This document shows positions 5,661-62,416 of a stretch of 64,000 bases of DNA, piece by piece (position 1 is the stretch's first letter; the number at the start of each line of letters is the position of its first letter). The notes under the pieces are model-generated. The model was not told where the DNA came from. It did no database searches and saw nothing but the letters and a program-made list of their open reading frames with translations. Source of the DNA: Clostridia bacterium (GTDB lineage Bacteria > Bacillota > Clostridia > Oscillospirales > CAG-272); assembly GCA_017416185.1 (NCBI GenBank), contig JAFQDF010000035.1, forward strand, positions 51,521-115,520. The letters are read 5' to 3'. The position numbers were made by a program, and so were the translations under genes.

Positions 5661-6920
5661 ATGGCAAACGAAAGCAATACAAACAATCAGAGCTACCGTT
5701 GCTCCTTCTGCGGCAGAGCAGAAAAGGACGTTATGTTCCTTATTCCTTCTCCCGTAGCTAAGGGTACCTTCATCTGCAACGATTGTGTGGATGCCTGTAT
5801 GGAGCTTTTAGGGGACTATGCTCCCGAGGCAGTAAGAACGGCAGGCGGCGGTAAGCTCACGTACGAGACTCTTCCCAAGCCTACAGAGATAAAGGCGACC
5901 CTTGACGAGTATGTTATAGGTCAGGACGGAGCAAAGAAGGCTCTGTCGGTTGCTGTATATAATCACTATAAGCGCATACTTTCCAAGGATAAAAAGAATG
6001 ATGACGACGTAGAGATCCAGAAAAGCAACGTTCTGCTGCTTGGTCCTACAAGCGTTGGTAAAACGTTTCTTGCCCAGAGTCTGGCAAAGACCCTGCAGGT
6101 TCCCTTTGCCATAGCGGATGCCACTACTCTTACCGAGGCAGGCTACGTAGGTGAGGACGTTGAGAATATTCTGCTTCGTCTTATTCAGGCGGCTGATTTT
6201 GACATCGAGCTTGCCGAGAAGGGAATAATCTATATCGACGAGATCGACAAGATATCCAGACGAAGCGAAAACCGCTCCATCACCCGTGACGTATCGGGCG
6301 AGGGCGTACAGCAGGCGCTTTTAAAGATACTTGAGGGAACTGTTTCCAACGTACCTCCTCAGGGCGGTCGTAAGCATCCCAATCAGGATTTTATACAGAT
6401 CAATACCGAGAATATCCTCTTTATCTGCGGCGGTGCTTTTGACGGTATCTCCGAGATAATAGAGAAGCGTAAGGGCAGCGGCTCTATGGGCTTTGGCGGC
6501 GAGGTGAAGACCAAGCAGGATAAGCAGCAGACCGCAATATACAAGGACGTACAGCCCCACGATATTATGAAATACGGACTTATCCCCGAGCTTGTGGGAC
6601 GTCTGCCCCTCATAGTCGGACTTGAGGGACTTGACCGTGACGCTCTTGTGCGTATCTTAAGAGAGCCCAAAAACTCGCTTATCAAGCAGTACAAGAAGCT
6701 CTTCGGTATGGATAATATGGATATCGAGTTTACCGACGATGCTCTCTATAAGGTGGCAGACCTTGCTATCGAGAGAAATATCGGTGCAAGAGGACTTCGC
6801 TCCATAATGGAGGAGATGATGCTCGACCTTATGTACGAGCTGCCTTCAAAGACCGACGTAACCAAGGTGACGGTGAACGCTGACGTGGTTACCGGTGAGG
6901 GGAAACCCACCGTAGAATAA
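5661..6920 (+). CDS. clpX: ATP-dependent Clp protease ATP-binding subunit ClpX
   Basis: N-terminal zinc-binding CSFCG..CNDC, Walker A GPTSVGKT and Walker [10 protein letters not shown]. Confidence 0.95.
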
Positions 6921-7086
6921 ATGCGGAATGCGGAGTGCGGAATGCAGAATTAATGATAAAATCGGTGTTCCGAAGAACACCGATTTTTTCGTCTTATTAT
7001 AATATGTCTTATATATAATATAATGGAATTTTTGACACCTAAGTGTCAAAAATCACCATAATTTTGCATTTTACATTTTGCATTCA
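6919..7086. repeat. 7-mer-armed palindromic element, copy D (AATGCGG... / ...TTGCATT arms)
   Basis: The left arm AATGCGG AATGCGG AGTGCGG AATGCAG AAT starts in the clpX stop codon. It is followed by the clpX terminator, an AT-rich spacer, core hairpin ATTTTTGACAC-ctaa-GTGTCAAAAAT, and then CACCATAATT TTGCATT TTACATT TTGCATT. Confidence 0.8.
6958..6990 (+). terminator. intrinsic terminator after clpX
   Basis: AAAATCGGTGTTC-cgaa-GAACACCGATTTT followed by TTC. The A-tract/U-tract form makes it potentially bidirectional. Confidence 0.8.
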
Positions 7087-7581
7087 CCATTGGTACTGCG
7101 TCAGTTGTCCCTGCTCACAAAGACCTTCAAATCCTCTTTGTCTGAACGTCTCGTATACCGCTATGGCTACCGTGTTTGAAAGATTTAAGCTGCGGAGATT
7201 TTCACGCATAGGCATACGGACGCATCTTTCTCGGTTGTGATACAGCAGATCCTCGGGCAAGCCTTTCGTCTCCTTGCCGAAAACCAAAAAGACCCTCTCG
7301 GGATATTTAACGTCGCTGTAGCACTGAGGAGCCTTGGTGGTAAAATAGTAAAATTCCTCTCCCTTGTTGCGTTCAAAGAAATCGTTTATGTCTTTATAAT
7401 AGGTAATATCAAGCTCGTGCCAGTAATCAAGTCCCGCACGCTTGAGCTTTCGGTCGTCTACCTTAAAGCCCATAGGCTCTACAAGGTGCAGGGAAGCGCC
7501 TGTTGCGGCACAGGTTCTGGCGATATTTCCGGTATTTTGGGGGATCTCGGGTTCAATTAATACAATATTGATGTTGCTCAT
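7084..7581 (-). CDS. trmL: tRNA (cytidine/uridine-2'-O)-methyltransferase TrmL (SpoU family)
   Basis: 165-aa ORF. IVLIEPEIPQNTGNIARTCAATG and LNLSNTVAIAVYE are SPOUT/TrmL motifs. Confidence 0.9.
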   Translation of the reverse strand: MSNINIVLIEPEIPQNTGNIARTCAATGASLHLVEPMGFKVDDRKLKRAGLDYWHELDITYYKDINDFFERNKGEEFYYFTTKAPQCYSDVKYPERVFLVFGKETKGLPEDLLYHNRERCVRMPMRENLRSLNLSNTVAIAVYETFRQRGFEGLCEQGQLTQYQW

Positions 7582-26943: not shown

Positions 26944-27000
26944 GAATGTGGATTTTGTCCTTTCGGACAAAATCGTCCATAATTTTGCATTTTGCATTCC
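26944..27000. repeat. minimal core-plus-7-mer element, copy E
   Basis: It starts directly after the dtd TAA: GAATGTG, hairpin GATTTTGTCC-tttc-GGACAAAATC, then GTCCATAATT TTGCATT TTGCATT. Confidence 0.75.
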
Positions 27001-33328: not shown

Positions 33329-33358
33329 ATAATATATAATACATAATACATAATACAT
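33329..33358. repeat. tandem 7-mer repeat (ATAATAC x3) upstream of the second transglutaminase-like gene
   Basis: ATAATAT ATAATAC ATAATAC ATAATAC AT is read directly. It has the same 7-nt A/T-rich periodicity as the TACATTN arms elsewhere. Confidence 0.7.
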
Positions 33359-33372
33359 CAATGGAGGACAGT

Positions 33373-35313
33373 ATGAAAAAGTTTCTTTTGGCAGCATTCG
33401 TTGCCCTGATGCTGACAGTAACAGCCTTTGCCGTATCGGCAGATGATTTTAACTTTAATGATGCCGCAAAGACTGAAGAGCTGGTGGCATATCTTGAAGA
33501 AAAGGCGCCCGAGGCGGGAACGAAAAATATCAACATAACCGATTTCAAAATTTCATCTGATAATACTCTTGATCTGTATCAGCTTTGTATCGATGAAGCA
33601 CCCCTGCTTTTCCAGTTCAAGCAGATAGTTGTGGTCAAGGATGCACATAACGAGTATATTACTCATATACGCTTCTTATACAAAGACGGATATGATCACG
33701 AATCCTACGTAAAAGACGTAGAGACGTGTAAGGCTAAGGCCGGAGAACTTCTTTACGGTATCAAGGATAACGACAGTCTTGATACCGTTACCAAAGCCTT
33801 GCTTCTCTACGACAGACTGGCTATGATATGTAGATATGATAACGAGAGTGTCGCTGCAGGTGTGGTCGAGTTTGGCTCTGATACTATGTACGGTCCCTTC
33901 ATCAAGGGTAAAGCTATCTGTACAGGTTACACAGGCGCATATATGTATTTGCTGCGTGAGATAGGTGTTGATTCAAGGACGGTTCGTTCAAAGGACGGTG
34001 AGGTTACTGTTCATGCCTGGCTTGTTGTTACAATGAATGGAATTGAGTATCATGCCGATCTGACCTATGACGATTCCGAACCTGACGTTCAGGGAAGAAT
34101 GGCACACGACTATTTCCTTATTTCCAGTGCAAGACTTAATTCTCTGGGACAGAACAAAATTTATCACAAGCATAATTTTGAGCTTACCGATACAAGATAC
34201 GAGGACAAATACTGGAAAAATTCCGAGACTCAGATAGTATTTGCAGACGGATTTATATATTTTATAAACAACCGTATTGAGAAGGAAAGAGGCATATACC
34301 TTGTTGACCCTGCGGATCCCACGTATACTCCGGTAAAGCTCATTGATCTTACCGATTACTGGATCAAGAGCAAGGTGGGAAACAGCTATGAAGCATATGC
34401 CAACTATCACTGTCTTTCCACCGACGGGAACGTTATTTTCTACTCCACTCCCAGAAACATATATGCTTATGATCTTACCAAGGGGACTACAAGGGTTATA
34501 TGCGCTCCTGTGATAACAGGTGAGTACGATAATATCTACGGTTTCAGATACGATAACGGTGATCTGGTATACAGCATTCACTATGCACCTAACTTCGGTG
34601 ATTCCGATATCAACGACGTATTTAACGACGAGGATTTTCAGATAAGAGAAAAGTATGATCCCGATGCTGCCCCCACACCTAACAAGACCCCGGTAATAGA
34701 TGTACCCGATCCCGGTACAGACCCCGATGACTCTGTTATAACCGTTTATTTTACCGACGTTAAAAAGAATCATTGGTACTTCGGTGCGGTGGAATATGCT
34801 TTAGTCAAGGGATATATGAACGGTATGTCCAAGACTACCTTCGCCCCTAACGGCAATATCAAGCGTGAGCAGTTCGTGCTTATCCTTGCAAATATAGCAG
34901 GAGTTAATACCGATAACTATAAGAACGTAAGCAGCGGTATGACCGACGTTCCTACGGGACAGTGGTATTCGGGTGCTGTTGCCTGGGCTGTGGAGAAGGG
35001 ATACGTCAGCGGTATGACCCTCACCACCTTCGGACGCGGCAGGGATATCACCCGTGCTCAGCTTGCCAGACTTTTCTACGTGTATGCAGAAAAGAACGGC
35101 ATCGACGTTAAGGGCAGAGCAGAGCTTTCAAGCTTTGCAGATAAGGCAAAGGTTCAGGACTGGATGTATGACGGACTTTCCTGGGCGGTGGATGCAGGTA
35201 TCATAAACGGTATGGAAATAGGCGGCAAGCTCTCTCTTGATCCTAACGGAAGTGCTATCAGAGCTCAGTGTGCGGTAATGCTTCAAAAATTTGATGTATA
35301 CAGAGGAAAATAA
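33373..35313 (+). CDS. secreted transglutaminase-like protein with C-terminal SLH domains (paralog of 10603..12918)
   Basis: Signal peptide MKKFLLAAFVALMLTVTAFA. Core CTGYTGAYMYLLREIGV...VHAWLVVTMNGIEYHADLTYDD. SLH modules FTDVKKNHWYFGAV..., MTDVPTGQWYSGAV..., FADKAKVQDWMYDG.... GGAGG lies 5 nt before the ATG at 33373. Confidence 0.8.
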   Translation: MKKFLLAAFVALMLTVTAFAVSADDFNFNDAAKTEELVAYLEEKAPEAGTKNINITDFKISSDNTLDLYQLCIDEAPLLFQFKQIVVVKDAHNEYITHIRFLYKDGYDHESYVKDVETCKAKAGELLYGIKDNDSLDTVTKALLLYDRLAMICRYDNESVAAGVVEFGSDTMYGPFIKGKAICTGYTGAYMYLLREIGVDSRTVRSKDGEVTVHAWLVVTMNGIEYHADLTYDDSEPDVQGRMAHDYFLISSARLNSLGQNKIYHKHNFELTDTRYEDKYWKNSETQIVFADGFIYFINNRIEKERGIYLVDPADPTYTPVKLIDLTDYWIKSKVGNSYEAYANYHCLSTDGNVIFYSTPRNIYAYDLTKGTTRVICAPVITGEYDNIYGFRYDNGDLVYSIHYAPNFGDSDINDVFNDEDFQIREKYDPDAAPTPNKTPVIDVPDPGTDPDDSVITVYFTDVKKNHWYFGAVEYALVKGYMNGMSKTTFAPNGNIKREQFVLILANIAGVNTDNYKNVSSGMTDVPTGQWYSGAVAWAVEKGYVSGMTLTTFGRGRDITRAQLARLFYVYAEKNGIDVKGRAELSSFADKAKVQDWMYDGLSWAVDAGIINGMEIGGKLSLDPNGSAIRAQCAVMLQKFDVYRGK

Positions 35314-35314
35314 A

Positions 35315-37717
35315 ATGAAGATTTGTAAAAAAATAACAGTTATTGCTCTTACGGTGTTGATGATTATTCCCCTTGTGACGGCAATGAACTCCTCCGCCTT
35401 TGTCGTGACCGAGTCTCATGACGCAAAAAAAGAGGGAAAGGGTCAGTATAGCTACGGTGATCTGACCTATAATATAATTAACGATGAGGCTGTCATTATG
35501 TACAGTCCCTCCGCTTCGGGCAAGGTCACGATTCCCGATAAGATCGACAACTATAAGGTGACCCAGATAGCGGACTATGCCTTTTATAACAATTCAAAAA
35601 TAACAAGCATCAGTATAGGCAAAAACGTGTGGCGTATAGGCGACTATGCCTTTGACCACTGTCTTGAGGTGGAGGCTGTCACTATGGGCAGCTCTGTAGA
35701 GGAGATCGGTGAATACGCTTTCCGTTACTGCTCCTATGTGGATTCCATATCTCTGCCCAAGAATATAGCCAGAATCGGCTACGGCTTTATTCACGGTACG
35801 GATTATTATCTGTGTGCAAAGTGGGCTGATAATATTCTGTATATAGACGATTATCTTATCGAAGCAAAGGTCTCAAAGATAAGCGGTTCTTATAAGATAA
35901 AGGATGGTGTTACCTGTATTGCAGACGGGGCGTTCAGAGATTGTGCAGGACTTACGGAGATAATCATTCCCGACTCGGTTATTACCATAGGCGGATTTGC
36001 CTTCAGCGGTTGCCCCAAGCTGGAAAATGTGGTCATCGGAAACTCTGTGAAATATATCCACGACTACGCTTTTCACGCCTGCAACGAAGTAAAATCTATA
36101 GAGATAGGTCCCTCGGTGCAAGAAATAGGCTACGGTGCCTTTGCAGGAGTCAGGTGCAGGGAGGTTATTGACGACGTTCATTATATAGGAAACTATCTGA
36201 TAACGGCACTTGTCACCGTCTCCGAGGTCGAGGTAAGAGAAGGTACTATCGCCATAGCAGAAAGAGCTTTCTGCGATTGCACATTCTTAAGAGAAGTAAG
36301 ACTTCCTTCTTCGCTTAAGAGTATAGGTAGTGTTGCATTTTCGGGAACTAACTCTCTTGATATGATAAACATTCCCGCGTCGGTTACCCGTATCGGTGGA
36401 GACGCTTTTAAGTTCGGCAAAAAGAATATAAGAGTATACGTAGAGGATATTTCGGCTTGGTGCGGTATCAGCTTTGAAAACCGTGATGCCAACCCCTTCC
36501 GCCGCAAGAACGCCACCATAGTGGATGATTTCTACGGAAAGACCGTTACCGAGATAACCGTTCCTGACGGTGTAAAGAGCATCGGTGAATATGCGTTTTA
36601 TAACCTGACTACTCTTGAAAAGATCAACATTCCCGATTCGGTAGAGAGTATAGGCTACGGCTGTTTTGAAAAAAAGGAAAATGACGTTATAGTTGCAAAC
36701 AACTCGGTAACTATGGTCTGCAATGAAGGCAGCTATGCCTACGGTTATGCAAAAGCTCAGGGAATGCCTTACGTTCCGAGCTGTGAACACAGCTTTACAA
36801 ACTATATTTCAAACAATGACTTTAGCTGTACCCATGACGGCACCGAGACCGCGGTATGCGATAACGGCTGCGGCAAAACCGACACAAGGGTAACCAAGAC
36901 AGCTCCCGGACACAGCTTTACAAACTATAAACACACAAGCGACTTCAGCTGTACTACCGATGAGACCGAAACTGCGGTATGTGACAACGGCTGCGGCAAG
37001 ACCGACGTAAAGGTTATTCAAAAGGCACCCGGACACAGATTTGAAAAATGGGTGACCGATATCGAGCCTACCTATATTTCAGAGGGTCAAAAGAGCAGTG
37101 TGTGTGCTGTCTGCTCCCACGTTGAAACCGTTGCAATACCAGCAAAGCACCTTAGCTTTCACGACGTAAACAGTACCCACTGGTACGCAGATTCGGTAAA
37201 ATACTGTGTACAGATGGGTTACGTAAGCGGTATGACCCAGTTCACCTTTGCTCCCAACGGCAAGCTTACCAGAGCGCAGTTCCTTACTATCCTCGCAAAG
37301 CAAGACGGCGTTGACCTCAGCGTATACGAGGGTAAGGACTCAGGCTTTACCGATGTTAAGTCCTATCATTGGTACAACACTTACATATGCTGGGCGGTGG
37401 AGCAGGAGCTTACCGCAGGTCTTACCCCCACCACCTTCGGACCTAACACTAACGTTACCAGAGCTCAGCTTGCACGTTTCTTCTACGTATATTCCGAAAA
37501 GAAGGGCATAGCTGTTGAGGGCAGAGCGGATATTTCCGCATATCCCGATGCCGACAAGGTGGCAGGATGGGCCATAGACGGAATCTCCTGGGCTGTGGAT
37601 GCAAGTATAATTAACGGTGTCAAGAGTGGCGATGTTAACTATCTTGACCCCAACGGTACTGCCACAAGAGCGCAGGCGACGGTGATGTTCAAGGCGTTTG
37701 ATACATTCAGAAAATAA
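35315..37717 (+). CDS. BspA-type leucine-rich-repeat surface protein with Cys-rich repeats and SLH domains
   Basis: It has a signal peptide and many I..IG..AF..C..L..I.IP LRR units. Three 41-aa H-x-F...C...AVC..CG modules follow. Three SLH modules lie at the C-terminus (FHDVNSTHWYADSV..., FTDVKSYHWYNTYI..., YPDADKVAGWAIDG...). Confidence 0.8.
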   Translation: MKICKKITVIALTVLMIIPLVTAMNSSAFVVTESHDAKKEGKGQYSYGDLTYNIINDEAVIMYSPSASGKVTIPDKIDNYKVTQIADYAFYNNSKITSISIGKNVWRIGDYAFDHCLEVEAVTMGSSVEEIGEYAFRYCSYVDSISLPKNIARIGYGFIHGTDYYLCAKWADNILYIDDYLIEAKVSKISGSYKIKDGVTCIADGAFRDCAGLTEIIIPDSVITIGGFAFSGCPKLENVVIGNSVKYIHDYAFHACNEVKSIEIGPSVQEIGYGAFAGVRCREVIDDVHYIGNYLITALVTVSEVEVREGTIAIAERAFCDCTFLREVRLPSSLKSIGSVAFSGTNSLDMINIPASVTRIGGDAFKFGKKNIRVYVEDISAWCGISFENRDANPFRRKNATIVDDFYGKTVTEITVPDGVKSIGEYAFYNLTTLEKINIPDSVESIGYGCFEKKENDVIVANNSVTMVCNEGSYAYGYAKAQGMPYVPSCEHSFTNYISNNDFSCTHDGTETAVCDNGCGKTDTRVTKTAPGHSFTNYKHTSDFSCTTDETETAVCDNGCGKTDVKVIQKAPGHRFEKWVTDIEPTYISEGQKSSVCAVCSHVETVAIPAKHLSFHDVNSTHWYADSVKYCVQMGYVSGMTQFTFAPNGKLTRAQFLTILAKQDGVDLSVYEGKDSGFTDVKSYHWYNTYICWAVEQELTAGLTPTTFGPNTNVTRAQLARFFYVYSEKKGIAVEGRADISAYPDADKVAGWAIDGISWAVDASIINGVKSGDVNYLDPNGTATRAQATVMFKAFDTFRK
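36788..37033 (+). repeat. 123-nt in-frame tandem repeat (2 full copies plus a diverged third) inside the LRR/SLH gene
   Basis: CACAGCTTTACAAACTAT... recurs at 36788 and 36911. A diverged copy starts at 37034 (CACAGATTTGAA). The unit encodes HSFTNY..DFSCT.D.TETAVCDNGCGKTD. Confidence 0.8.
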
Positions 37718-42352: not shown

Positions 42353-44170
42353 ATGGCAGATATAAACGAGCTCCGAAAGAGAGCAAACGAGCTTCCTTCA
42401 TCCCCCGGTGTATACCTGATGAAGGACAAAAACGACAGGATAATATACGTAGGCAAGTCAAAGGTGCTTAAAAACCGAGTTTCCCAGTATTTCAAGGAAA
42501 CGGGGCATCACGATTTCAAGACCGCAAAGATGGTATCGAACGTAGACCACTTTGACTATATGCTTACCCATACCGAGATAGAGGCATTGAGTCTTGAAAA
42601 CAGACTTATAAAGCTTCATAAGCCTAAGTATAATATTCTCTTAAAGGACGATAAGAGCTACCCCTATATCAAGGTGACAACAGGGGAGGAATACCCGCGG
42701 CTTCAGTTCGTCCGTAAGCGAAACAACGATAAAGCAAAATACTTCGGACCGTATTCGGGAGCAACGACGGCATATTCCATTATCCGTACCGCACAGCGCT
42801 CCTTCGGTATACCGAGATGCTCTAAAAAGTTTCCGCAGGATATAGGCAAGACCCGACCCTGTCTTTACTATCAGCTTGGTCAGTGCACCGGAGTATGTAC
42901 AGGTAAGGTCTCAAAGGAAAGATATAACGAAACTGTAAAGGATCTTTTGGCTTTCTTAGGCGGATCATTTTCCGAGGTCAAAAAATCTCTTGAGGAAAAG
43001 ATGTACTACGCCTCCGAAAATCTGCTTTTCGAGATGGCGGCGCAGTACCGAGATTCCATAAAGGAGCTTGACACCCTCTGGCAGAAGCAGAAGGTGGTGG
43101 GCGCTCCCGATGCCGAATATGACATAATCTCACTTTACAGCGACGAGGTCTCCTCCTGTCTTGCAATATTCTACGTCCGCGACGGCTGTGTTATCGACAA
43201 CGAGCGTTTTATCTTCGGTGCAGATCAGATCATCACTCCCGACTCTGTTGCGGCGTTTCTGTGTGATCTCTATACCAAGCGAGAGTATATACCAAAGAAT
43301 ATCCTTATCGGCTTTGAGCTTGATGAAGAAAGTGACGAGATGCTGACTGCTTTTCTCAACGATAAGGCAGGGTACAGGGTACACGTAAAATACCCCGAGC
43401 GAGGTGATCTCAAGTCTCTGTGCAATATGGTATACGATAACGCAAGACAGTATGCGGGACAGTATAAGGCAGATACCGAAAGGGATAACAAGACACTTAT
43501 CAAGTTAGCTTCTATGCTCTCCCTTGAGGTGGTTCCCGAGCATATCGAGGCTTATGATATATCCAACTTCGGCTCGGATAACATCACGGGCGGTATGATA
43601 TCGGTGCGTGACTCTAAGTTCTGCAAAAAGGATTACCGTACCTATAAGATAAGAGGAACGGGCGGAGAACAGGATGACTATGCTTCTATGAGAGAAACTA
43701 TAGAGCGACGCCTTTCCCATACCGAGCAGACCTATCCCGACCTTATCCTCCTTGACGGAGGTAAGGGTCACGTTTCTACGATTAAGCAATTACTGGAAGA
43801 GCTGAATATCGACATCCCTGTATTCGGTATGGTCAAGGACGAGTTCCATAAGACCAGAGCCTTAACCACCGAGGACGAGGAGATAAGTATAGCAAGAGAG
43901 CAGTCGGTATTCCAGTTTATATATAAAATACAGGAGGAGGTACACCGATTTACAATCAAGGCTATGTCGGGTGCCAAATCAAAGACCTTGACCCATTCCT
44001 CCCTTGAAAAGATAGAGGGCATAGGTCAGACCAAGGCAAAGAATCTCTTAGCCCACTTCAAAAAGCTTGCGGCAATAAAGGAAGCAAGCGTAGACGAATT
44101 AAAGCAAGTAAAGGGCATATCCGAAAAGAATGCCAATGATATTTTTGACTATTTTCATCAGGAGAAATGA
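42353..44170 (+). CDS. uvrC: excinuclease ABC subunit C
   Basis: GIY-YIG domain (PGVYLMKDKNDRIIYVGKSKVLKNRVSQYF), UVR domain, endonuclease V-like domain and C-terminal (HhH)2. ATG at 42353 is preferred because the ORF-track start at 42275 runs through the ptsH terminator. Confidence 0.9.
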   Translation: MADINELRKRANELPSSPGVYLMKDKNDRIIYVGKSKVLKNRVSQYFKETGHHDFKTAKMVSNVDHFDYMLTHTEIEALSLENRLIKLHKPKYNILLKDDKSYPYIKVTTGEEYPRLQFVRKRNNDKAKYFGPYSGATTAYSIIRTAQRSFGIPRCSKKFPQDIGKTRPCLYYQLGQCTGVCTGKVSKERYNETVKDLLAFLGGSFSEVKKSLEEKMYYASENLLFEMAAQYRDSIKELDTLWQKQKVVGAPDAEYDIISLYSDEVSSCLAIFYVRDGCVIDNERFIFGADQIITPDSVAAFLCDLYTKREYIPKNILIGFELDEESDEMLTAFLNDKAGYRVHVKYPERGDLKSLCNMVYDNARQYAGQYKADTERDNKTLIKLASMLSLEVVPEHIEAYDISNFGSDNITGGMISVRDSKFCKKDYRTYKIRGTGGEQDDYASMRETIERRLSHTEQTYPDLILLDGGKGHVSTIKQLLEELNIDIPVFGMVKDEFHKTRALTTEDEEISIAREQSVFQFIYKIQEEVHRFTIKAMSGAKSKTLTHSSLEKIEGIGQTKAKNLLAHFKKLAAIKEASVDELKQVKGISEKNANDIFDYFHQEK

Positions 44171-44173
44171 ATT

Positions 44174-44722
44174 ATGATGCGTATAATTACAGGAACTGCA
44201 AGAGGAACCAAGCTCCAGACCCTTGAGGGTGAGGCTACCCGTCCCACCTCCGAGCGTACCAAGGAGTCGGTTTTCAGTATGCTGCAGTTTGATATAGAGG
44301 GCAGACGTGTCCTCGATCTTTTCGGCGGTTCGGGACAGTTGGGTCTTGAGGCGCTGAGCCGCGGTGCGGCTTCTGCCACTATCGTTGACCAGTCTGCGGA
44401 TGCGGTAAAGATAATCAAGGCAAACGCACAGAAGACCAAGCTCTTTGACCGCTGTGTCATCCTCACAAAGGACTATAAGGCGTACCTCAAGGGAACAAAG
44501 GAAAAGTTTGATATCATCTTCCTTGATCCTCCCTATGACTCAAATATGCTCAGCGAGGCTATGAGGATAATCCTCGAGCAGGATATGCTCAACTATCAGG
44601 GTACCATAGTTCTCGAGAGCGGAAATGATGATATTCCTGAATATGGAGACTTAACCTTACGCAGACACTATAAGTCGGGCAGAGCGTATGTTACCGTATT
44701 GACCAATGAGGTTGGTCAATAA
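44174..44722 (+). CDS. rsmD: 16S rRNA (guanine966-N2)-methyltransferase
   Basis: MRIITGTARG..L......TRPTSERTKESVF, DLFGGSGQLGLEALSRGA and FLDPPY motifs. Confidence 0.9.
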   Translation: MMRIITGTARGTKLQTLEGEATRPTSERTKESVFSMLQFDIEGRRVLDLFGGSGQLGLEALSRGAASATIVDQSADAVKIIKANAQKTKLFDRCVILTKDYKAYLKGTKEKFDIIFLDPPYDSNMLSEAMRIILEQDMLNYQGTIVLESGNDDIPEYGDLTLRRHYKSGRAYVTVLTNEVGQ

Positions 44723-44830
44723 ATGTATAATGTAAAATGTAGAATGTAAAATGAAGGAGATTTTTGTTGCTTAAAGCAACAAAAATTCCATCCATAATTA
44801 TACATTGTACATTATACATTTTATATTCTT
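44721..44830. repeat. 7-mer-armed palindromic element, copy F (AATGTAN x4 / TACATTN x4)
   Basis: The left arm AATGTAT AATGTAA AATGTAG AATGTAA AATGAAGGA starts in the rsmD stop codon. Core hairpin GATTTTTGTTGC-ttaaa-GCAACAAAAAT. Then TCCATCCATAATTA TACATTG TACATTA TACATTT TATATTC. Confidence 0.85.
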
Positions 44831-44859
44831 TTCAGTAAATTGAAAGGTAAAATCAAACT

Positions 44860-45321
44860 ATGAAAAAAGCAGTTATCCCCGGAACATACGACCCTATAAC
44901 CAACGGTCATATGAACCTTATCCACCGTGCGGCAGATATGTTTGACGAGGTCATCGTTGCGGTGGTATATAATGCGGCAAAGAACAATATGTTCAGCCTC
45001 GAAGAGCGTAAGGCATTTGCAGAAGAGGCCTGCAGCAAATATCCCAACGTCCGTGTAGAGGCCTTTGAAGGTCTTTTGGTGGACTTTGTAAAAAAAGAAA
45101 ATATAGACGTTGTGGTCAGAGGCGTGCGTAACGCCCGTGACTTTGACTATGAGTACGAGCTTGCACAGATATACTTTATGACAGGCGACGGATTGGAAAC
45201 AGTATTTTTGCCCTCTAACGGCGCCAACGCCCACGTAAGCTCCACTATGGTACGTGAGCTTATCAAGCACAATAAACCCTGTGATGAATTTATTCCATTC
45301 ACGATGGAGGAAAAACAATGA
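44860..45321 (+). CDS. coaD: phosphopantetheine adenylyltransferase
   Basis: AVIPGTYDPITNGHMNLI (T/HxGH), plus the typical C-terminal half. Confidence 0.95.
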   Translation: MKKAVIPGTYDPITNGHMNLIHRAADMFDEVIVAVVYNAAKNNMFSLEERKAFAEEACSKYPNVRVEAFEGLLVDFVKKENIDVVVRGVRNARDFDYEYELAQIYFMTGDGLETVFLPSNGANAHVSSTMVRELIKHNKPCDEFIPFTMEEKQ

Positions 45322-46025
45322 GCTATCCTACACCGCATATTGATGCAAAGCCAACTGATTTTGCCGAAACGGTATTGATGCCCGGCGACCCCAAGCGCTC
45401 TGCCTTTATAGCCAAGGAGTTTCTCACCGATGCCGTGCTTGTAAACGACGTGAGAGGAGTTCAGGGCTACACGGGATTTTACAAGGGTAAGCGTGTTTCC
45501 TGTATGGCGAGCGGAATGGGTATGCCCTCTATGGGTATCTACAGCTACGAGTTATTTAACTTCTTTGACGTTAAAAATATAATCCGCGTAGGCTCAGCAG
45601 GTGCCTTTCAGCCCGAGATGAACTTAGGCGATCTTGTTTTCGCAATGGCAGCATCCACAGATTCTAATTATTTAAAGTCCTTCGGACTACCCGGTGATTG
45701 TGCTCCCACAGCCTCGGAAAAGCTTCTTTTTGATGCCGTGGATAACGCAAAAGCAAAAGGACTTCGTTACTTTGCGGGTAATATCGTTTCAAGCGATATT
45801 TTCTATAACCCCGATCCCACGGTCAACAGCCGTTGGGCAGAGATGGGAGTTTTGGCGGTAGATATGGAAGCGGCGGCTCTCTATGCCAATGCCGCAAAGG
45901 CAGGCAAAAATGCTTTAACTATCCTTACCGTGTCGGATCAGCTTGTCCGCGGTGAGCATATGTCAAGCGAAGAAAGGCAGAATTCCTTTGCGGATATGAT
46001 AACCCTTGCACTTGATATAGCATAA
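45318..46025 (+). CDS. deoD: purine-nucleoside phosphorylase (DeoD type)
   Basis: TPHIDAKPTDFAETVLMPGDPKRSAFIAKEFL, RVGSAGA and VDMEAAALY motifs. ATGA overlap with coaD. Confidence 0.9.
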   Translation: MSYPTPHIDAKPTDFAETVLMPGDPKRSAFIAKEFLTDAVLVNDVRGVQGYTGFYKGKRVSCMASGMGMPSMGIYSYELFNFFDVKNIIRVGSAGAFQPEMNLGDLVFAMAASTDSNYLKSFGLPGDCAPTASEKLLFDAVDNAKAKGLRYFAGNIVSSDIFYNPDPTVNSRWAEMGVLAVDMEAAALYANAAKAGKNALTILTVSDQLVRGEHMSSEERQNSFADMITLALDIA

Positions 46026-46048
46026 GAGTATTTTAAGGAGGTATCTTT

Positions 46049-46747
46049 ATGAAGAAAGTCATTCCTATACTTATTTCTTTATCGTTGATCGTCACTATGA
46101 CTGCGTGTTCGGTTAATGATGTGACCTTTGAATCCGAAAGCATTTCGGTAAACGAAAAGATAACCACCAATCCACCAATTAAAGAGATAAGCGATGATGA
46201 TATTGTGCCCATATATTCCAGTAGTGACGTTATTGCTACCGATATCAATGATATCTGTAAACTTTCGGATGTGATCATCAGAGTACGTTACGGCAAGGAT
46301 ATTGATACTTATGCCAGAGAGGGTTCGGGTACACCTGTTACGATTGCTGAGTTTGAGGTGATCGATGTGATTAAAGGGGAATATAACGGCAGTACCATCA
46401 AGGCTGAATTTTACGGTGGAATTATACCGATGTCTGAGTATTTGCAAGCATTGAGCGAAGCTACCCTCCAAAAAGCAGGCTATGATAACTATACAGAGGA
46501 AGAAATTAAGAAAAAATTTGTAAAGCTTGTAGATACTACACCCTTGTCTGAATTTTCAAGTAGTGATGAATATCTGTTGCTGTTGTCCTACGATCCCGAA
46601 ACCGACGTGTATTTTGTTCTTTGTGGGGGCTACGGTTCACCTGTTGTTAAGGACAATAAAGTATACAACTCCGTTAAGGATGAGTACGTGGATATGGCAC
46701 GTATAGAAGCGGCTGCACAAACCGAGCTTGAGTTTGCAATAAAATAG
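46049..46747 (+). CDS. lipoprotein of unknown function (paralog 1)
   Basis: Lipobox LIVTMTAC|S. The C-terminal 170 aa are clearly similar to the next gene (I did not compute the identity). No family is recognised. Confidence 0.7.
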   Translation: MKKVIPILISLSLIVTMTACSVNDVTFESESISVNEKITTNPPIKEISDDDIVPIYSSSDVIATDINDICKLSDVIIRVRYGKDIDTYAREGSGTPVTIAEFEVIDVIKGEYNGSTIKAEFYGGIIPMSEYLQALSEATLQKAGYDNYTEEEIKKKFVKLVDTTPLSEFSSSDEYLLLLSYDPETDVYFVLCGGYGSPVVKDNKVYNSVKDEYVDMARIEAAAQTELEFAIK

Positions 46748-46875
46748 AATAATTAAAAAGTAGGGATGATTGACCTTGGTCAATCCTAAAAGTATAATGT
46801 ATAATAATTTTGGCACTTTGGAGGTTAGTACGGTTCAAGAAGTTGATCATATCGCTTTTAATCAAAAACATCCGT

Positions 46876-49100: not shown

Positions 49101-49217
49101 TGCATTATATGCAAATATGCGGGATGTGGGATCAAATAAAGAAAACTGTTGCTTAAAAGCAACAGTTTTCCACCGTAATTATACATTATTCATTTTACAT
49201 TATACATTTTTTTCGCA
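49101..49217. repeat. 7-mer-armed palindromic element, copy G (opposite polarity)
   Basis: ..ATATGCGGGATGTGGGAT.., hairpin GAAAACTGTTGC-ttaaaa-GCAACAGTTTTC, then CCACCGTAATTA TACATTA TTCATTT TACATTA TACATTT. In minus sense the hairpin is followed by TTTATTTG, which is terminator-like. Confidence 0.75.
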
Positions 49218-50630: not shown

Positions 50631-51808
50631 TGGCTTTTTCGGGGGTAAAATGGTTATGGGGCTTCCGTAAGCTCAGGTGCGAAAGACTGCATTCGGTAAG
50701 GCTTCTCAACCTTATGACCCGTGAGGGGATAGATTATTTCGGACTCGTACGGTGCGACGGGGGTGAAATAAACTTTTTCCTGCTTGAAAAAGAATACAAA
50801 ATACTTATGTCAATTCTTGACAAAACCGACATAAAGGTTTATAGTGTATACTGTAAAGGTGTACCCTTTGTTATAAAGGCACGCCGCAACAGATGGGGTC
50901 TCGTTTTAGGACTTGTGATATATCTGGGTATCATTTTCCTGTCCTCGCTTTTTATATGGGATATAAGGGTGGTATCAAATACAGATACTCCCCACAACGT
51001 GATCATCAAAAATCTTGAGACCTTGGGGTGCTTTGAGGGTGCTTTTTTGCCTGAGATCGATTTTGAAAATCTCTGTATAGATTATGTTGGCAAATACCGT
51101 GAATTTTCCTGGATATCGGTCAATGTCAAGGGTACTGTTGCCTACGTTGAAATACAGGAAAAGAAGCTTCATTCGGAGCAGACACAAGAGCCCCGGAATC
51201 TTATAGCCTCCCACGGCGGAATAATAGAGGATTTCAGCGTTTACGAGGGACGAAGCCACGTGGCTGCGGGAAACGTGGTAAAGCCGGGAGACCTTCTTGT
51301 AAGCGGTGTTGTGGAAAACAAGGAGGGAGCATACAGGCTGTGCAGAGCAAGGGGCGAGGTAATGGCGACCGTGGATACTACACTTACCGTAGAGGTGCCT
51401 TTTTGTTATCAAAAGCAGGTATATACAGGCAGACGCTTTGAGGAAAAACGTATAAGATTCTTCAATCTTACCTTTCCGTATTTTTCTGATAACGTACCGA
51501 AGGATATAACGTGTACAAGTCTCAGAGAGACAGAATCGGCAGTGCTTTTTGAGGTGATCGAGCTTCCCCTGTCTATAGAGAAGCAGGTGTACCGTGAGTA
51601 TACCGCAAAGGACTTTGTATACTCCGAGGAGGAGGCTGAATCTGCCGCCGAGGCTTTGATGAAGCGAAAGCTTTCGGATGAGCTTCCCGATGCCGAGCTG
51701 ATATCGGTTGAGACCGAGGAAAAGAAAACGGAGACCTCGTATATATTAACTCTTAACATAAAATGCAGGATGGATATTACCACACCTGCTGATATAGAAA
51801 CACAGTAA
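50630..51808 (+). CDS. yqfD: stage IV sporulation protein YqfD
   Basis: 392 aa with a single central TM helix. Synteny is yqfC-yqfD-phoH. The start overlaps the yqfC stop by 1 nt. Confidence 0.8.
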   Translation: MAFSGVKWLWGFRKLRCERLHSVRLLNLMTREGIDYFGLVRCDGGEINFFLLEKEYKILMSILDKTDIKVYSVYCKGVPFVIKARRNRWGLVLGLVIYLGIIFLSSLFIWDIRVVSNTDTPHNVIIKNLETLGCFEGAFLPEIDFENLCIDYVGKYREFSWISVNVKGTVAYVEIQEKKLHSEQTQEPRNLIASHGGIIEDFSVYEGRSHVAAGNVVKPGDLLVSGVVENKEGAYRLCRARGEVMATVDTTLTVEVPFCYQKQVYTGRRFEEKRIRFFNLTFPYFSDNVPKDITCTSLRETESAVLFEVIELPLSIEKQVYREYTAKDFVYSEEEAESAAEALMKRKLSDELPDAELISVETEEKKTETSYILTLNIKCRMDITTPADIETQ

Positions 51809-60765: not shown

Positions 60766-60843
60766 TTCGTAAATAAAGGAAGATTTTTGTCCCTTGCGGA
60801 CAAAAATCCTCCATAATTTTGAATTTTGCATTTTGCATTAAAT
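60766..60843. repeat. minimal core-plus-7-mer element, copy H
   Basis: It starts directly after the rhaB TAA: TTCGTAAATAAAGGAA, hairpin GATTTTTGTCC-cttgc-GGACAAAAATC, then CTCCATAATT TTGAATT TTGCATT TTGCATT A. Confidence 0.8.
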
Positions 60844-60871: not shown

Positions 60872-62128
60872 ATGATCAACAAGAGCTATGAATTAGCAAA
60901 AGAGATCTATGCGGCACAGGGTATTGATACCGATGCTGCGATCGCTAAGCTTAAGAACATTCCCGTTTCACTTCACTGCTGGCAGGGTGACGACGTTATC
61001 GGCTTTGACCACGACGGCCCCCTTAACGGCGGTATCCAGACCACAGGTAACTATCCCGGCAAGGCAACCACTCCCGAACAGCTTATGGCTGATATGGACA
61101 AGGTTCTTTCCCTCTGTCCCGGTACCAAGAAGATCAACGTTCACGCTTGCTACGCTATCTTTGAGGACGGCAAGTTCGTAGACCGCGATAAGCTCGAGCC
61201 AAAGCATTTCGCTAAGTGGGTAGAGTTTGCAAAGGCACACGGCTGCGGTCTTGACTTCAACCCCACCTTCTTCTCCCATCCTATGCAGAATGACGGTCTT
61301 ACCCTTTCCAGCCCCGATGAGAACGTAAGAAAGTTCTGGGTAGAGCACGGTAAGGCTTGTATCCGCATTTCCGAGTATTTCGCAAAGGAAACAGGTATGC
61401 CCTGTGTTATGAACATCTGGATCGGCGACGGCTTCAAGGATATTCCCGCTGACCGTATGGGTCCCAGAATGAGATATAAGCAGTCTATCGAGGAGATCCT
61501 CTCCGAGCCTTATGACTTCAACCTCGTTAAGCCCTGCGTTGAGTCCAAGGTATTCGGTATCGGTGTTGAGTCTTACACTGCAGGCTCTGCAGAGTTCGCT
61601 CTCTCCGTTGTTGCGGCAAATGCCGATAAGTGCATTCCCCTTATGGACAACGGTCACTACCATCCCACCGAGGTCGTTTCCGACAAGATCCCCGCACTTC
61701 TTTGCTTCTTCCCCGAGATCGCACTCCACATCACCCGTGGTGTTCGTTGGGACTCCGACCACGTTGTTCTCTTTGACGACGAGACCAAGGAAATGGCAAA
61801 GGAGATCGTTCGTTGCGACGCTCTTGACCGTGCATACATGGCTCTTGACTACTTTGATGCTTCCATCAACCGTATCTCCGCTTGGACCACAGGCTTCAGA
61901 AGCTGGCAGAAGGCTCTGCTTGCGGCTATATGTACTCCCAACGCAGCTCTCAAGGAGCTTCAGAATGCAGGCAACTTCACCAAGCTTATGGTTATGCAGG
62001 AAGAGGCTAAGATGCTTCCCTTCGGCGCAGTATGGGCTAAGTACTGTGAGGAATGCGGCGTAGCAGGCGACGCTTCCTGGTTTGACGAAGTAGAGAAGTA
62101 CGAAACTGAGGTACTTTCTAAGAGATGA
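60872..62128 (+). CDS. rhaA: L-rhamnose isomerase
   Basis: 418 aa. SLHCWQGDDV, HYHPTE and WDSDHVV motifs of RhaA. Confidence 0.9.
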   Translation: MINKSYELAKEIYAAQGIDTDAAIAKLKNIPVSLHCWQGDDVIGFDHDGPLNGGIQTTGNYPGKATTPEQLMADMDKVLSLCPGTKKINVHACYAIFEDGKFVDRDKLEPKHFAKWVEFAKAHGCGLDFNPTFFSHPMQNDGLTLSSPDENVRKFWVEHGKACIRISEYFAKETGMPCVMNIWIGDGFKDIPADRMGPRMRYKQSIEEILSEPYDFNLVKPCVESKVFGIGVESYTAGSAEFALSVVAANADKCIPLMDNGHYHPTEVVSDKIPALLCFFPEIALHITRGVRWDSDHVVLFDDETKEMAKEIVRCDALDRAYMALDYFDASINRISAWTTGFRSWQKALLAAICTPNAALKELQNAGNFTKLMVMQEEAKMLPFGAVWAKYCEECGVAGDASWFDEVEKYETEVLSKR

Positions 62129-62364
62129 ATTGAACCCTATGGGTTCATAAATTGAGCCTGGCGGCCCATGAATTGACAACTTTGTTGTCATGAATTGTGT
62201 CACAAGGACACATTAAGGAAAGTTTTTGCCTTTAGGCAAAAACAATTCTAATTGAATTAGTTTTCGCCCAAGGGCGAAAAGTTACCTTAATGCACCGTAG
62301 GAGCAATTCATGACCGTAGGTCAATTCATGGTGAAACCAATTCATGGCGAAGCCAATTCATTTA
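62125..62364. repeat. hairpin-string palindromic element, copy A2 (CATGAATTG / CAATTCATG linkers)
   Basis: It has the same order of modules as 2516..2757: 4 linkers + inserts, CATTAAGG, core AGTTTTTGCC..GGCAAAAAC, second hairpin TTTTCGCC..GGCGAAAA, CCTTAATG, then 4 inserts + linkers. The first linker contains the rhaA TGA stop. Confidence 0.9.
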
Positions 62365-62416
62365 CATAGCTAAATAACATTTATAGAAATTAAACTTAAT
62401 TTTGAGGTGTATTCCA

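Follow-up and report, generated by a model that had tools for sequence, protein, structure and literature searches.

A heptamer-armed palindrome at an rsmD-coaD junction and the dispersed family of hairpin-forming repeats to which it belongs

Between rsmD and coaD in a 64,000-nucleotide stretch of a Clostridia bacterium genome (Oscillospirales, CAG-272; contig JAFQDF010000035.1, forward-strand positions 51,521 to 115,520; hereafter the window) lies a palindrome whose arms are tandem arrays of heptamers. The bacterium is an uncultured member of the Oscillospiraceae/Clostridia that lives in the ruminant gut. An earlier reading of this DNA, made without database searches (the sequence-only reading), had supposed that the palindrome separates two genes that are neighbors in B. 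subtilis, and such a separation is borne out: in relatives the pair is adjacent or overlapping (L002, L009-L012; L numbers denote loci from other genomes and contigs). What, then, is the intervening DNA: a regulatory structure of this operon, a terminator, a small RNA, or one representative of something more widespread? The analysis reported here favors the last. The palindrome is probably one copy of a dispersed, non-coding DNA repeat, similar in behavior to REPINs (hairpin-forming doublets of repetitive extragenic palindromic, or REP, sequences) and to miniature transposable elements with inverted repeats (MITEs), and reshaped by slippage and by copying from arm to arm.

Anatomy of the rsmD-coaD element

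The element extends from 44722 to 44827. It opens with five AATGNNN units; a hairpin of 11 bp follows, then CCATAATT, and four NNNCATT units close it. It is thus a compact palindrome with one hairpin at its center and 1+4 units on each side. The open reading frame (ORF) of rsmD (44174-44722) ends in a stop codon that is overlapped by the first heptamer, as had been proposed, and coaD starts at 44860; Pfam supports both gene names (PF03602 for rsmD, matched on an identical gene in L200, and PF01467 for coaD). The sequence between 44721 and 44830 is exactly as the sequence-only reading described it, and its account of the arms as inverted heptamer arrays holds in both repeat searches and predicted fold, with a stem of ∼43 bp carrying periodic mismatches. 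An inverted-repeat search pairs 44722-44758 with 44791-44827 (37 nt, 81% complementary), and Tandem Repeats Finder returns period-7 arrays of 4.7 and 3.4 copies flanking the hairpin and lying between the ORFs. The predicted RNA fold has a free energy of −43.6 kcal/mol, against −17.6±3.0 for shuffled sequences (z −8.6; 0 of 200 shuffles as good), and consists of 6-bp helices with a single mismatch at each seventh base, plus the core hairpin. The mismatched seventh bases are the same on both arms (T, A, G, A), which is not a general property: among 233 unit pairs the seventh bases are identical in 8%. With its head-to-tail 7-nt units, more than three in number and intergenic, the element is a tandem heptamer array, and with approximately four units in paired inverted arrays it is one of the kind known from Xanthomonas and Geobacter.

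That the structure is a bidirectional intrinsic terminator or a small RNA gene we find scarcely credible. It is an intergenic hairpin, and a related copy elsewhere in the window (copy 1, below) does include a hairpin of canonical terminator form, T-run and all; at rsmD-coaD, however, a T-run precedes and an A-run follows the core stem on both strands, with no U-tract at the 3′ side on either. Because no U-tract follows the core hairpin, it is not an intrinsic terminator. No terminator-like site was found between 44500 and 45000, promoter-like matches are within chance (4, against 1.9±1.4 in shuffles), and the element stands between genes whose counterparts in relatives overlap or are co-transcribed. 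The small RNA suggested by the sequence-only reading is thus left with no terminator, with promoter-like matches at chance level and, as shown below, with no orientation bias. A search of the whole window against Rfam gave no match at gathering thresholds; at the element itself the matches were confined to miRNA-type hairpins and scored far below threshold, and on nine related loci the only relevant match was a sub-threshold one to Gut-1, on a different type of repeat.

The sequence-only reading had also remarked on an AAGGAG next to the core stem, calling it Shine-Dalgarno (SD)-like and, speculatively, a possible GGA-type protein-binding motif. It is neither an SD for a conserved ORF nor a conserved GGA site, being part of the inner junction unit of the left arm. 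That unit reads AATGAAGG at rsmD-coaD and AATTGAGG, AATTATGG, AATTGTGG or AATTGCGG in other copies; only its GG is constant, mirroring the CC of CCNNAATT. A CsrA/Rsm-type site, for which a conserved GGA, preferably in a hairpin loop, would be expected, was considered and set aside: the GGA of AAGGAG is at the base of the stem, and the homologous junctions AATTATGG, AATTGTGG and AATTGCGG have none. Nor is there a conserved ORF behind the AAGGAG. A TTG at 44766, 6 nt after it, opens a frame of 23 codons, which we rejected because the hairpins vary in length and sequence between copies and no frame is conserved.

Related copies and their turnover at gene junctions

The feature is not special to rsmD-coaD but belongs to a dispersed family with five copies in the window and more in many phyla. 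The window has 13 instances of the two-unit pattern AATGTANAATGTA (at most one mismatch), where 0.43 would be expected, and five arrays of at least three CATT-core units, against 0.24 in shuffles. Four further copies combine a hairpin, CC[AG]TAATT and NNNCATT units (at 7025-7091, 26947-26998, 49137-49208 and 60781-60839; full extents in Table 1). Copy 1 is a long form (fold −76.6 kcal/mol, z −10.6) whose left arm opens in a stop codon and whose right arm closes in the stop codon of a convergent gene; copy 4 is located between two minus-strand genes; copies 2 and 5 are half elements. All five CC[AG]TAATT junctions (at 7056, 26977, 44792, 49173 and 60811) lie on the plus strand, which also encodes most of the window's genes; since other loci show no orientation bias, this agreement is probably due to chance.

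A common layout emerges from these and other loci: each arm has approximately four outer heptamers and one inner unit (AATTNNGG / CCNNAATT), and between the arms stand one or two short hairpins with perfect stems. The outer units are of type ARTK-NNN on the left and NNN-MAYT on the right; the inner units are AATT-NN-GG (family consensus AAT-K-R-W-GG) on the left and CC-NN-AATT on the right. The common low-GC form reads, from left to right, (ARTK-NNN)x4, AATT-NN-GG-T, a first hairpin (6-7 bp, loop TTC, TCC or TTCG), a linker RATTWAAATCA, a second hairpin (5 bp, loop GAA or GNA), YA-CC-NN-AATT and (NNN-MAYT)x4. The first hairpin is often of the reverse-complement type of the second, so that the complete element amounts to two half elements in inverted orientation.

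Table 1. Coordinates of the rsmD-coaD element, its surroundings and related copies in the window.
Feature	Position	Strand	Remarks
rsmD stop codon TAA	44720-44722	+	ORF call; Pfam PF03602
Left arm, outer heptamers AATGTAT AATGTAA AATGTAG AATGTAA	44722-44749		ARTK-NNN type
Left inner junction unit AATGAAGG	44750-44757		holds AAGGAG; fifth left unit AATGAAG ends at 44756
Core hairpin, stem ATTTTTGTTGC / GCAACAAAAAT	44760-44786		perfect 11 bp; loop TTAAA (5 nt)
Right inner junction CCATAATT	44792-44799		family consensus CC-NN-AATT
Right arm, outer heptamers ATACATT GTACATT ATACATT TTATATT	44800-44827		NNN-MAYT type
Unique coaD leader, 32 nt	44828-44859	+	own SD-like GAAAGG; 100% conserved in strains with a different element
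Copy 1, long form	6920-7091		AATGCGG-type left arm, terminator-like hairpin, AT-rich spacer, second hairpin, CCATAATT, TTGCATT-type right arm
Copy 2, half element	26944-26998	+	hairpin GGATTTTGTCC/GGACAAAATC, CCATAATT, 2 TTGCATT units
Copy 4	49104-49208		degenerate left arm (ATGCGGG ATGTGGG), hairpin GAAAACTGTTGC/GCAACAGTTTTC, CCGTAATT, 4 units
Copy 5	60766-60839	+	left-arm remnant, hairpin GATTTTTGTCC/GGACAAAAATC, CCATAATT, 3 units

Comparison of orthologous junctions shows the elements to be fast-turnover occupants of the spaces between genes. In L002, whose RsmD is 97% identical, the rsmD-coaD junction reads TAAGCTATG and has no element; in more distant relatives the two genes overlap or adjoin. 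At the same junction L001, L003 and L004 carry long two-hairpin forms built from other heptamers (AGTTAGG/CCTNACT, AATGCAA/TTGCATT and AGTGCAG/CTGCATT, respectively). The sequence-only reading had looked to the spacers of related genomes for the periodic arms, and this expectation held in part: the arms persist at some loci in a different sequence, and other relatives have no spacer at all. Among contigs that encode an identical CoaD protein, some have the element of the window and others an unalignable one, composed of AGTGCAA x4, a different hairpin and a decayed right arm; the 32-nt coaD leader and 2 kb of downstream sequence are 100% identical between them, and the left flank 91-99%. One metagenome strain (run X4) has 102 other bases in place of 44712-44825, and in the same run there is excess depth over the element region, contributed by other copies. 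Elsewhere in the window, the site of copy 5 holds a full 4+4 element in L222 and is empty in L223, and copy 1 differs from its ortholog in L187 by whole units, by a concerted change from CGG to CAG across units and by a replaced hairpin.

Two further observations concern the surroundings of this locus. Locus L201 aligns with window positions 43360-46821 as a mosaic: identity is 100% on the right side of the element and 85-100%, in the main 91-99%, on its left side, and a recombination breakpoint therefore lies at or beside the element. At the next junction downstream, between coaD and the gene for purine nucleoside phosphorylase (PNP), the genes overlap by 4 nt in the window (45318-45321) and in L002; full or half heptamer elements occupy this junction in L003 (4230-4470), L004 (4245-4480) and L001 (4240-4300), and the C-terminus of CoaD and the N-terminus of PNP differ in step with their presence.

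A cis-acting RNA of the rsmD-coaD operon, be it a selected stabilizer, an RNase III-type site, a translational insulator or a CsrA/GGA site, would account for the very stable predicted fold, for the position of the element within a co-directional gene pair from the stop codon onward, and for the retention by coaD of its own SD and leader; REP elements of E. coli, moreover, have stabilizing, processing and insulating-type effects on mRNA. We nonetheless think this unlikely. The element is absent beside a nearly identical RsmD and exchanged for an unalignable one beside an identical CoaD, the GGA is not conserved, the Rfam matches do not rise above chance-level hairpins, and the same elements occur within phage late operons (see below). 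Nor does the pattern of substitution point to RNA. Hairpin stems have changed on both sides in 10 of 12 pairs, with one G-U cell in ∼250; arm mismatches read on the mRNA sense strand are G-U in 57 cases and A-C in 59; and arrays with no partner arm are oriented 46 to 43 relative to co-directional genes, that is, with no bias. Neither of the marks of a structured RNA under selection, tolerance of G-U on the transcribed strand and a fixed orientation, was found. Complementarity is higher within an element than between elements: in paired units the share of complementary bases is 72-78% at the variable positions 5 and 6 and 40% at position 7, and over the three variable positions together it is 63%, against 37% for arms taken from different elements. 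These patterns fit complementarity kept at the level of DNA, not selection on one RNA strand.

Distribution among phyla and in phage contigs

With 20 specified bases, the pattern CCATAATT(NNNCATT)x3 would by our estimate match approximately once by chance in 596 Gb. Exact matches are present at no fewer than 119 loci in species-representative genomes. Among the matches listed are Clostridia, Negativicutes, Bacteroidota, Nitrospirota, Deltaproteobacteria, Planctomycetota, Campylobacterota, Spirochaetota, Saccharibacteria and cyanobacteria, isolates and complete genomes included; about half of these matches have an inverted left arm within 260 nt. The exact hairpin of the rsmD-coaD element had no match in JGI metagenomes. 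A match in Calothrix carries GGTCATT, a rotation of TTGGTCA, the unit of the cyanobacterial repeat STRR2. Arrays of the GGGAATC type (Xanthomonadales, Gemmatimonadota, Moorena and others) obey this grammar too, their inner unit being NNCGATT. Carriers identified in these scans include Clostridium lamae, Alkaliphilus peptidifermentans DSM 18978, Calothrix NIES-2100 and Xanthomonas.

The regularity of the arrays is considerable. In 1.49 Mb of fetched loci there are 318 arrays of period 7, against at most four at any one of the periods 5, 6 and 8-11, and 303 of the 318 can be rotated to end in A-Y-T, against 64% expected. A fourth CATT unit, which the search pattern does not require, is present in ∼80% of the matches listed, with no fifth, and 85 of 140 arrays among those matches have four outer units. 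In arrays not selected by the pattern, five units are the mode (146 of 263); the first of these is distinct, of form (W)C-C-N-Y-AATT, and CCATAATT (at most one mismatch) is found in 61 of 266, against 0.7% of random 24-mers.

Such constancy is what would be expected of a binding platform, in which evenly spaced MAYT/ARTK cores, four or five to an arm, are read by a conserved protein through which the element functions or is mobilized. The reader might be an OB-fold, KH, S1 or Csp protein acting on single-stranded DNA or RNA, or a multimeric DNA-binding or HUH-type enzyme recognizing the arms like iterons beside an origin hairpin; S1, Csp or CsrA has been proposed for the TAACTGA repeats (PMC4679880). 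The fixed modal number of units, the unrequired fourth unit, the common A-Y-T ending and the retention of the CC-NN-AATT junction in many phyla all speak for this possibility. So does a second palindromic family of the window (described below), which keeps 4+4 conserved 8-mers, each with a small looped-out hairpin: its units become evenly spaced only when a single strand folds. On the other hand, the flanking ORFs yielded no candidate protein beside the elements; a spacing of 7 bp places successive sites on differing faces of a DNA duplex; three positions out of the seven are free to vary among the copies of one genome; the CC-NN-AATT junction is absent from the high-GC GGGAATC-type arrays; and the lack of orientation bias gives no indication of a strand-specific RNA reader. 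We regard a binding platform as a live possibility, though a rather doubtful one.

The pattern is also present in 13 viral contigs, one of which (L213, IMGVR_UViG_3300018475_000788) carries three copies at three different gene junctions, with 96% column identity over 115 nt. The three have their hairpins and a systematic arm mismatch in common; in each the first unit supplies or overlaps a stop codon, and all lie in a siphovirus-like module of head and tail genes. Copies at several sites that share derived details imply copying. A purely local origin, by polymerase slippage on an AT-rich spacer beside an existing terminator hairpin, independently at each site and with no copying, is accordingly very unlikely. 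Slippage has been proposed as the cause of heptamer dominance in prokaryotes, at least in the summary of Mrazek 2007 given in PMC4679880, and unit number does vary between orthologs, as does heptamer sequence among the copies of one genome; but near-identical copies at three sites of a single contig and a conserved junction and two-hairpin core recurring in unrelated phyla speak against it, and an inverted 1+4 / 1+4 symmetry is not what simple slippage produces.

Elements also lie in phage modules in L210, L219, L221 and a Faecousia locus (L108), and in several contigs the portal gene is bracketed by elements on both sides. The phage records that share arrays are unannotated faecal ones only; there are none among annotated phages.

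Likeness to known repeats and a possible mode of propagation

Heptamers are the most abundant periodic repeat of prokaryotic intergenic DNA and have given no clear clue to function (PMC6344855); their dominance in many prokaryotes was reported by Mrazek 2007, as summarized in PMC4679880. Described examples include GGGAATC in Xanthomonas and GGGGAYT in Nostoc (Rehm 2015, PMC4692102), the former in arrays of mostly four units, with ∼70 convergent pairs and differences between Xcc and Xac (PMC4692102); families in Geobacter metallireducens in which four or five heptanucleotides stand in tandem, in some cases as opposed pairs (PMC2700814); and TAACTGA arrays in Beggiatoaceae (PMC4679880). The element described here is like these in its period of 7, its intergenic position, its units mostly about four in number and often in paired inverted arrays, its variation in length and sequence between close relatives and its occurrence in scattered phyla; our scans also show a shared unit grammar, with an A-Y-T ending. 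The cyanobacterial STRR are likewise tandem heptamer repeats. Unlike the repeats described, the low-GC copies have a conserved CC-NN-AATT / AATT-NN-GG inner unit and a core of one or two hairpins, and the G-quadruplex proposed for G-rich heptamers is impossible for AATGTAN or NNNCATT units. The conserved junction, the two-hairpin core and the link to phages were not found in the heptamer-repeat literature covered, which did not extend to Elhai 2008, and we make no claim that they are new.

REPINs have been put forward as a model for short palindromic repeats of other kinds (PMC3116915), and the likeness to REPs, REPINs and bacterial interspersed mosaic elements (BIMEs) is evident: the copies are extragenic, multicopy and hairpin-forming, often arranged as inverted doublets, situated at gene junctions and 3′ ends with no target duplication, variable between strains and transcribed within operons. 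In contrast to REPs, the element has no GTAG-type 5′ tetranucleotide, its arms are tandem heptamers and its hairpins differ within a genome; what is conserved is CC-NN-AATT and the MAYT cores, and in sequence it is not a REP. MITEs, among which are Correia/NEMIS, RUP and BOX, and the foldback elements of eukaryotes, with inverted arms of short tandem repeats, offer a second comparison: the element is similarly short, non-coding, ended by terminal inverted repeats and present or absent between strains. It differs from MITEs in that it has no target-site duplication, no parent insertion sequence with the same ends was found, and its arm sequence is unconserved, and it is therefore not a MITE in the strict sense. 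The element is thus a further case of the known, unexplained tandem heptamer kind, which behaves like REPINs and MITEs but has neither the sequence marks that define REPs nor the target-site duplication that defines MITEs.

How might such a repeat arise and persist? If the palindrome is a copy of a dispersed DNA repeat, the family may spread by a trans-acting route of copying, in the manner of REPINs and MITEs, while replication slippage would add, remove and homogenize units. Intrastrand template switching on an extruded hairpin could copy one arm onto the other, in which case arms and stems would stay complementary with no selection on an RNA; the correction of quasipalindromes by template switching is established in E. 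coli genetics. At rsmD-coaD the transcript would bear the predicted −43.6 kcal/mol hairpin from the rsmD stop codon onward, and in a junction that was formerly coupled such a hairpin would uncouple coaD translation from rsmD and leave it reliant on its own SD. The hairpin may also block 3′ exonucleases.

Several points weigh against the preference for a mobile, slippage-shaped repeat. Neither a copying enzyme nor a parent element was found near the elements, and no gene of the kind that encodes REP-associated tyrosine transposases (RAYTs) was seen beside any copy in the flanking ORFs, to which that search was confined. In six cases left and right arms are more than 250 bp apart; none of the four intervals inspected holds an autonomous parent, three of them containing housekeeping genes (a periplasmic binding protein, PNPase, and folate and Mur genes) and the fourth, of 706 bp, having no gene, and no insertion sequence with ends matching the arms was found among these far-apart pairs. 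No gene family recurs among 330 flanking ORFs, phage structural genes excepted, and the compared copies and empty sites show no consistent direct repeat that would represent a target-site duplication. The preferred 1+4 units, together with a MAYT core and a CC-NN-AATT junction common to many phyla, suggest that something reads these motifs, and neutral slippage alone does not account for the fixed number and the conserved cores. Template switching, for its part, is deduced from patterns in the sequences, and an RNA-level role may exist as well. Finally, the loci analyzed were chosen for carrying an element, and our counts are not genome-wide rates.

Even so, the locus and its relatives provide a testable anatomy: inverted 1+4 arms, a conserved junction, perfect hairpins, fast turnover and presence in phages. 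A defined element that crosses phyla replaces a statistical oddity, and a factor that binds or mobilizes it can be sought. In practical terms, annotation of the rsmD-coaD spacer should name a repeat element and not a small RNA, terminator or regulatory site.

The window contains two elements of the second palindromic family already mentioned (2518-2760 and 62120-62365). Each consists of 4 x (ATGAATTG + small variable hairpin) followed by ATTAAGGAAG, two hairpins separated by a linker (the first of GATTTTTGCC/GCAAAAATC type) and TTACCTTAAT, and then 4 x (small hairpin + CAATTCATG). The family matches the heptamer elements in its 4+4 grammar, its ATTAAGG/CCTTAAT junction and its type of core hairpin; neither of the two window elements has an Rfam match, Gut-1 included. 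An analogue at L099 (297-460) is built of AGTGAAGTT + hairpin units, then hairpin + AACTTCACT units, and its two arms score 39.8 and 29.2 bits against Gut-1 (RF01706), below the gathering cut-off of 50. This Gut-1-related type has a conserved 8-9-mer plus a small hairpin, four times per arm, around a core, and Gut-1 may represent a single arm of a palindromic DNA element of the L099 type; the rsmD-coaD element itself does not match Gut-1.

More speculatively, heptamer-armed palindromes could constitute a single cross-phylum class of self-propagating DNA hairpins, with a fixed grammar read by a conserved single-strand nucleic-acid machine and with Gut-1-like elements as variants. The grammar so conceived would comprise 1+4 units, a 4-nt core every 7 nt, the CC-NN-AATT junction and the two-hairpin core. 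We put this forward as a conjecture only; were it true, it would explain why period 7 dominates the intergenic repeats of prokaryotes.

Some minor observations remain. In Moorena (L320 and L337), one ∼30-nt sequence, TTCCCCTCCTGGGAGGGGTTAGGGGTGGGT, recurs as an interruption of CCCGATT/CCCGACT arrays; it looks like the small dispersed repeats of cyanobacteria that Elhai 2008 is reported to describe as inserting into heptamer arrays. Within the window, four ATAATAC units (33329-33358), whose sequence is outside the MAYT grammar, directly follow a canonical terminator and precede a start codon. A 123-bp tandem repeat (36787-37042; 2.1 copies, 78% identity) lies inside a large ORF at 35291-37717.

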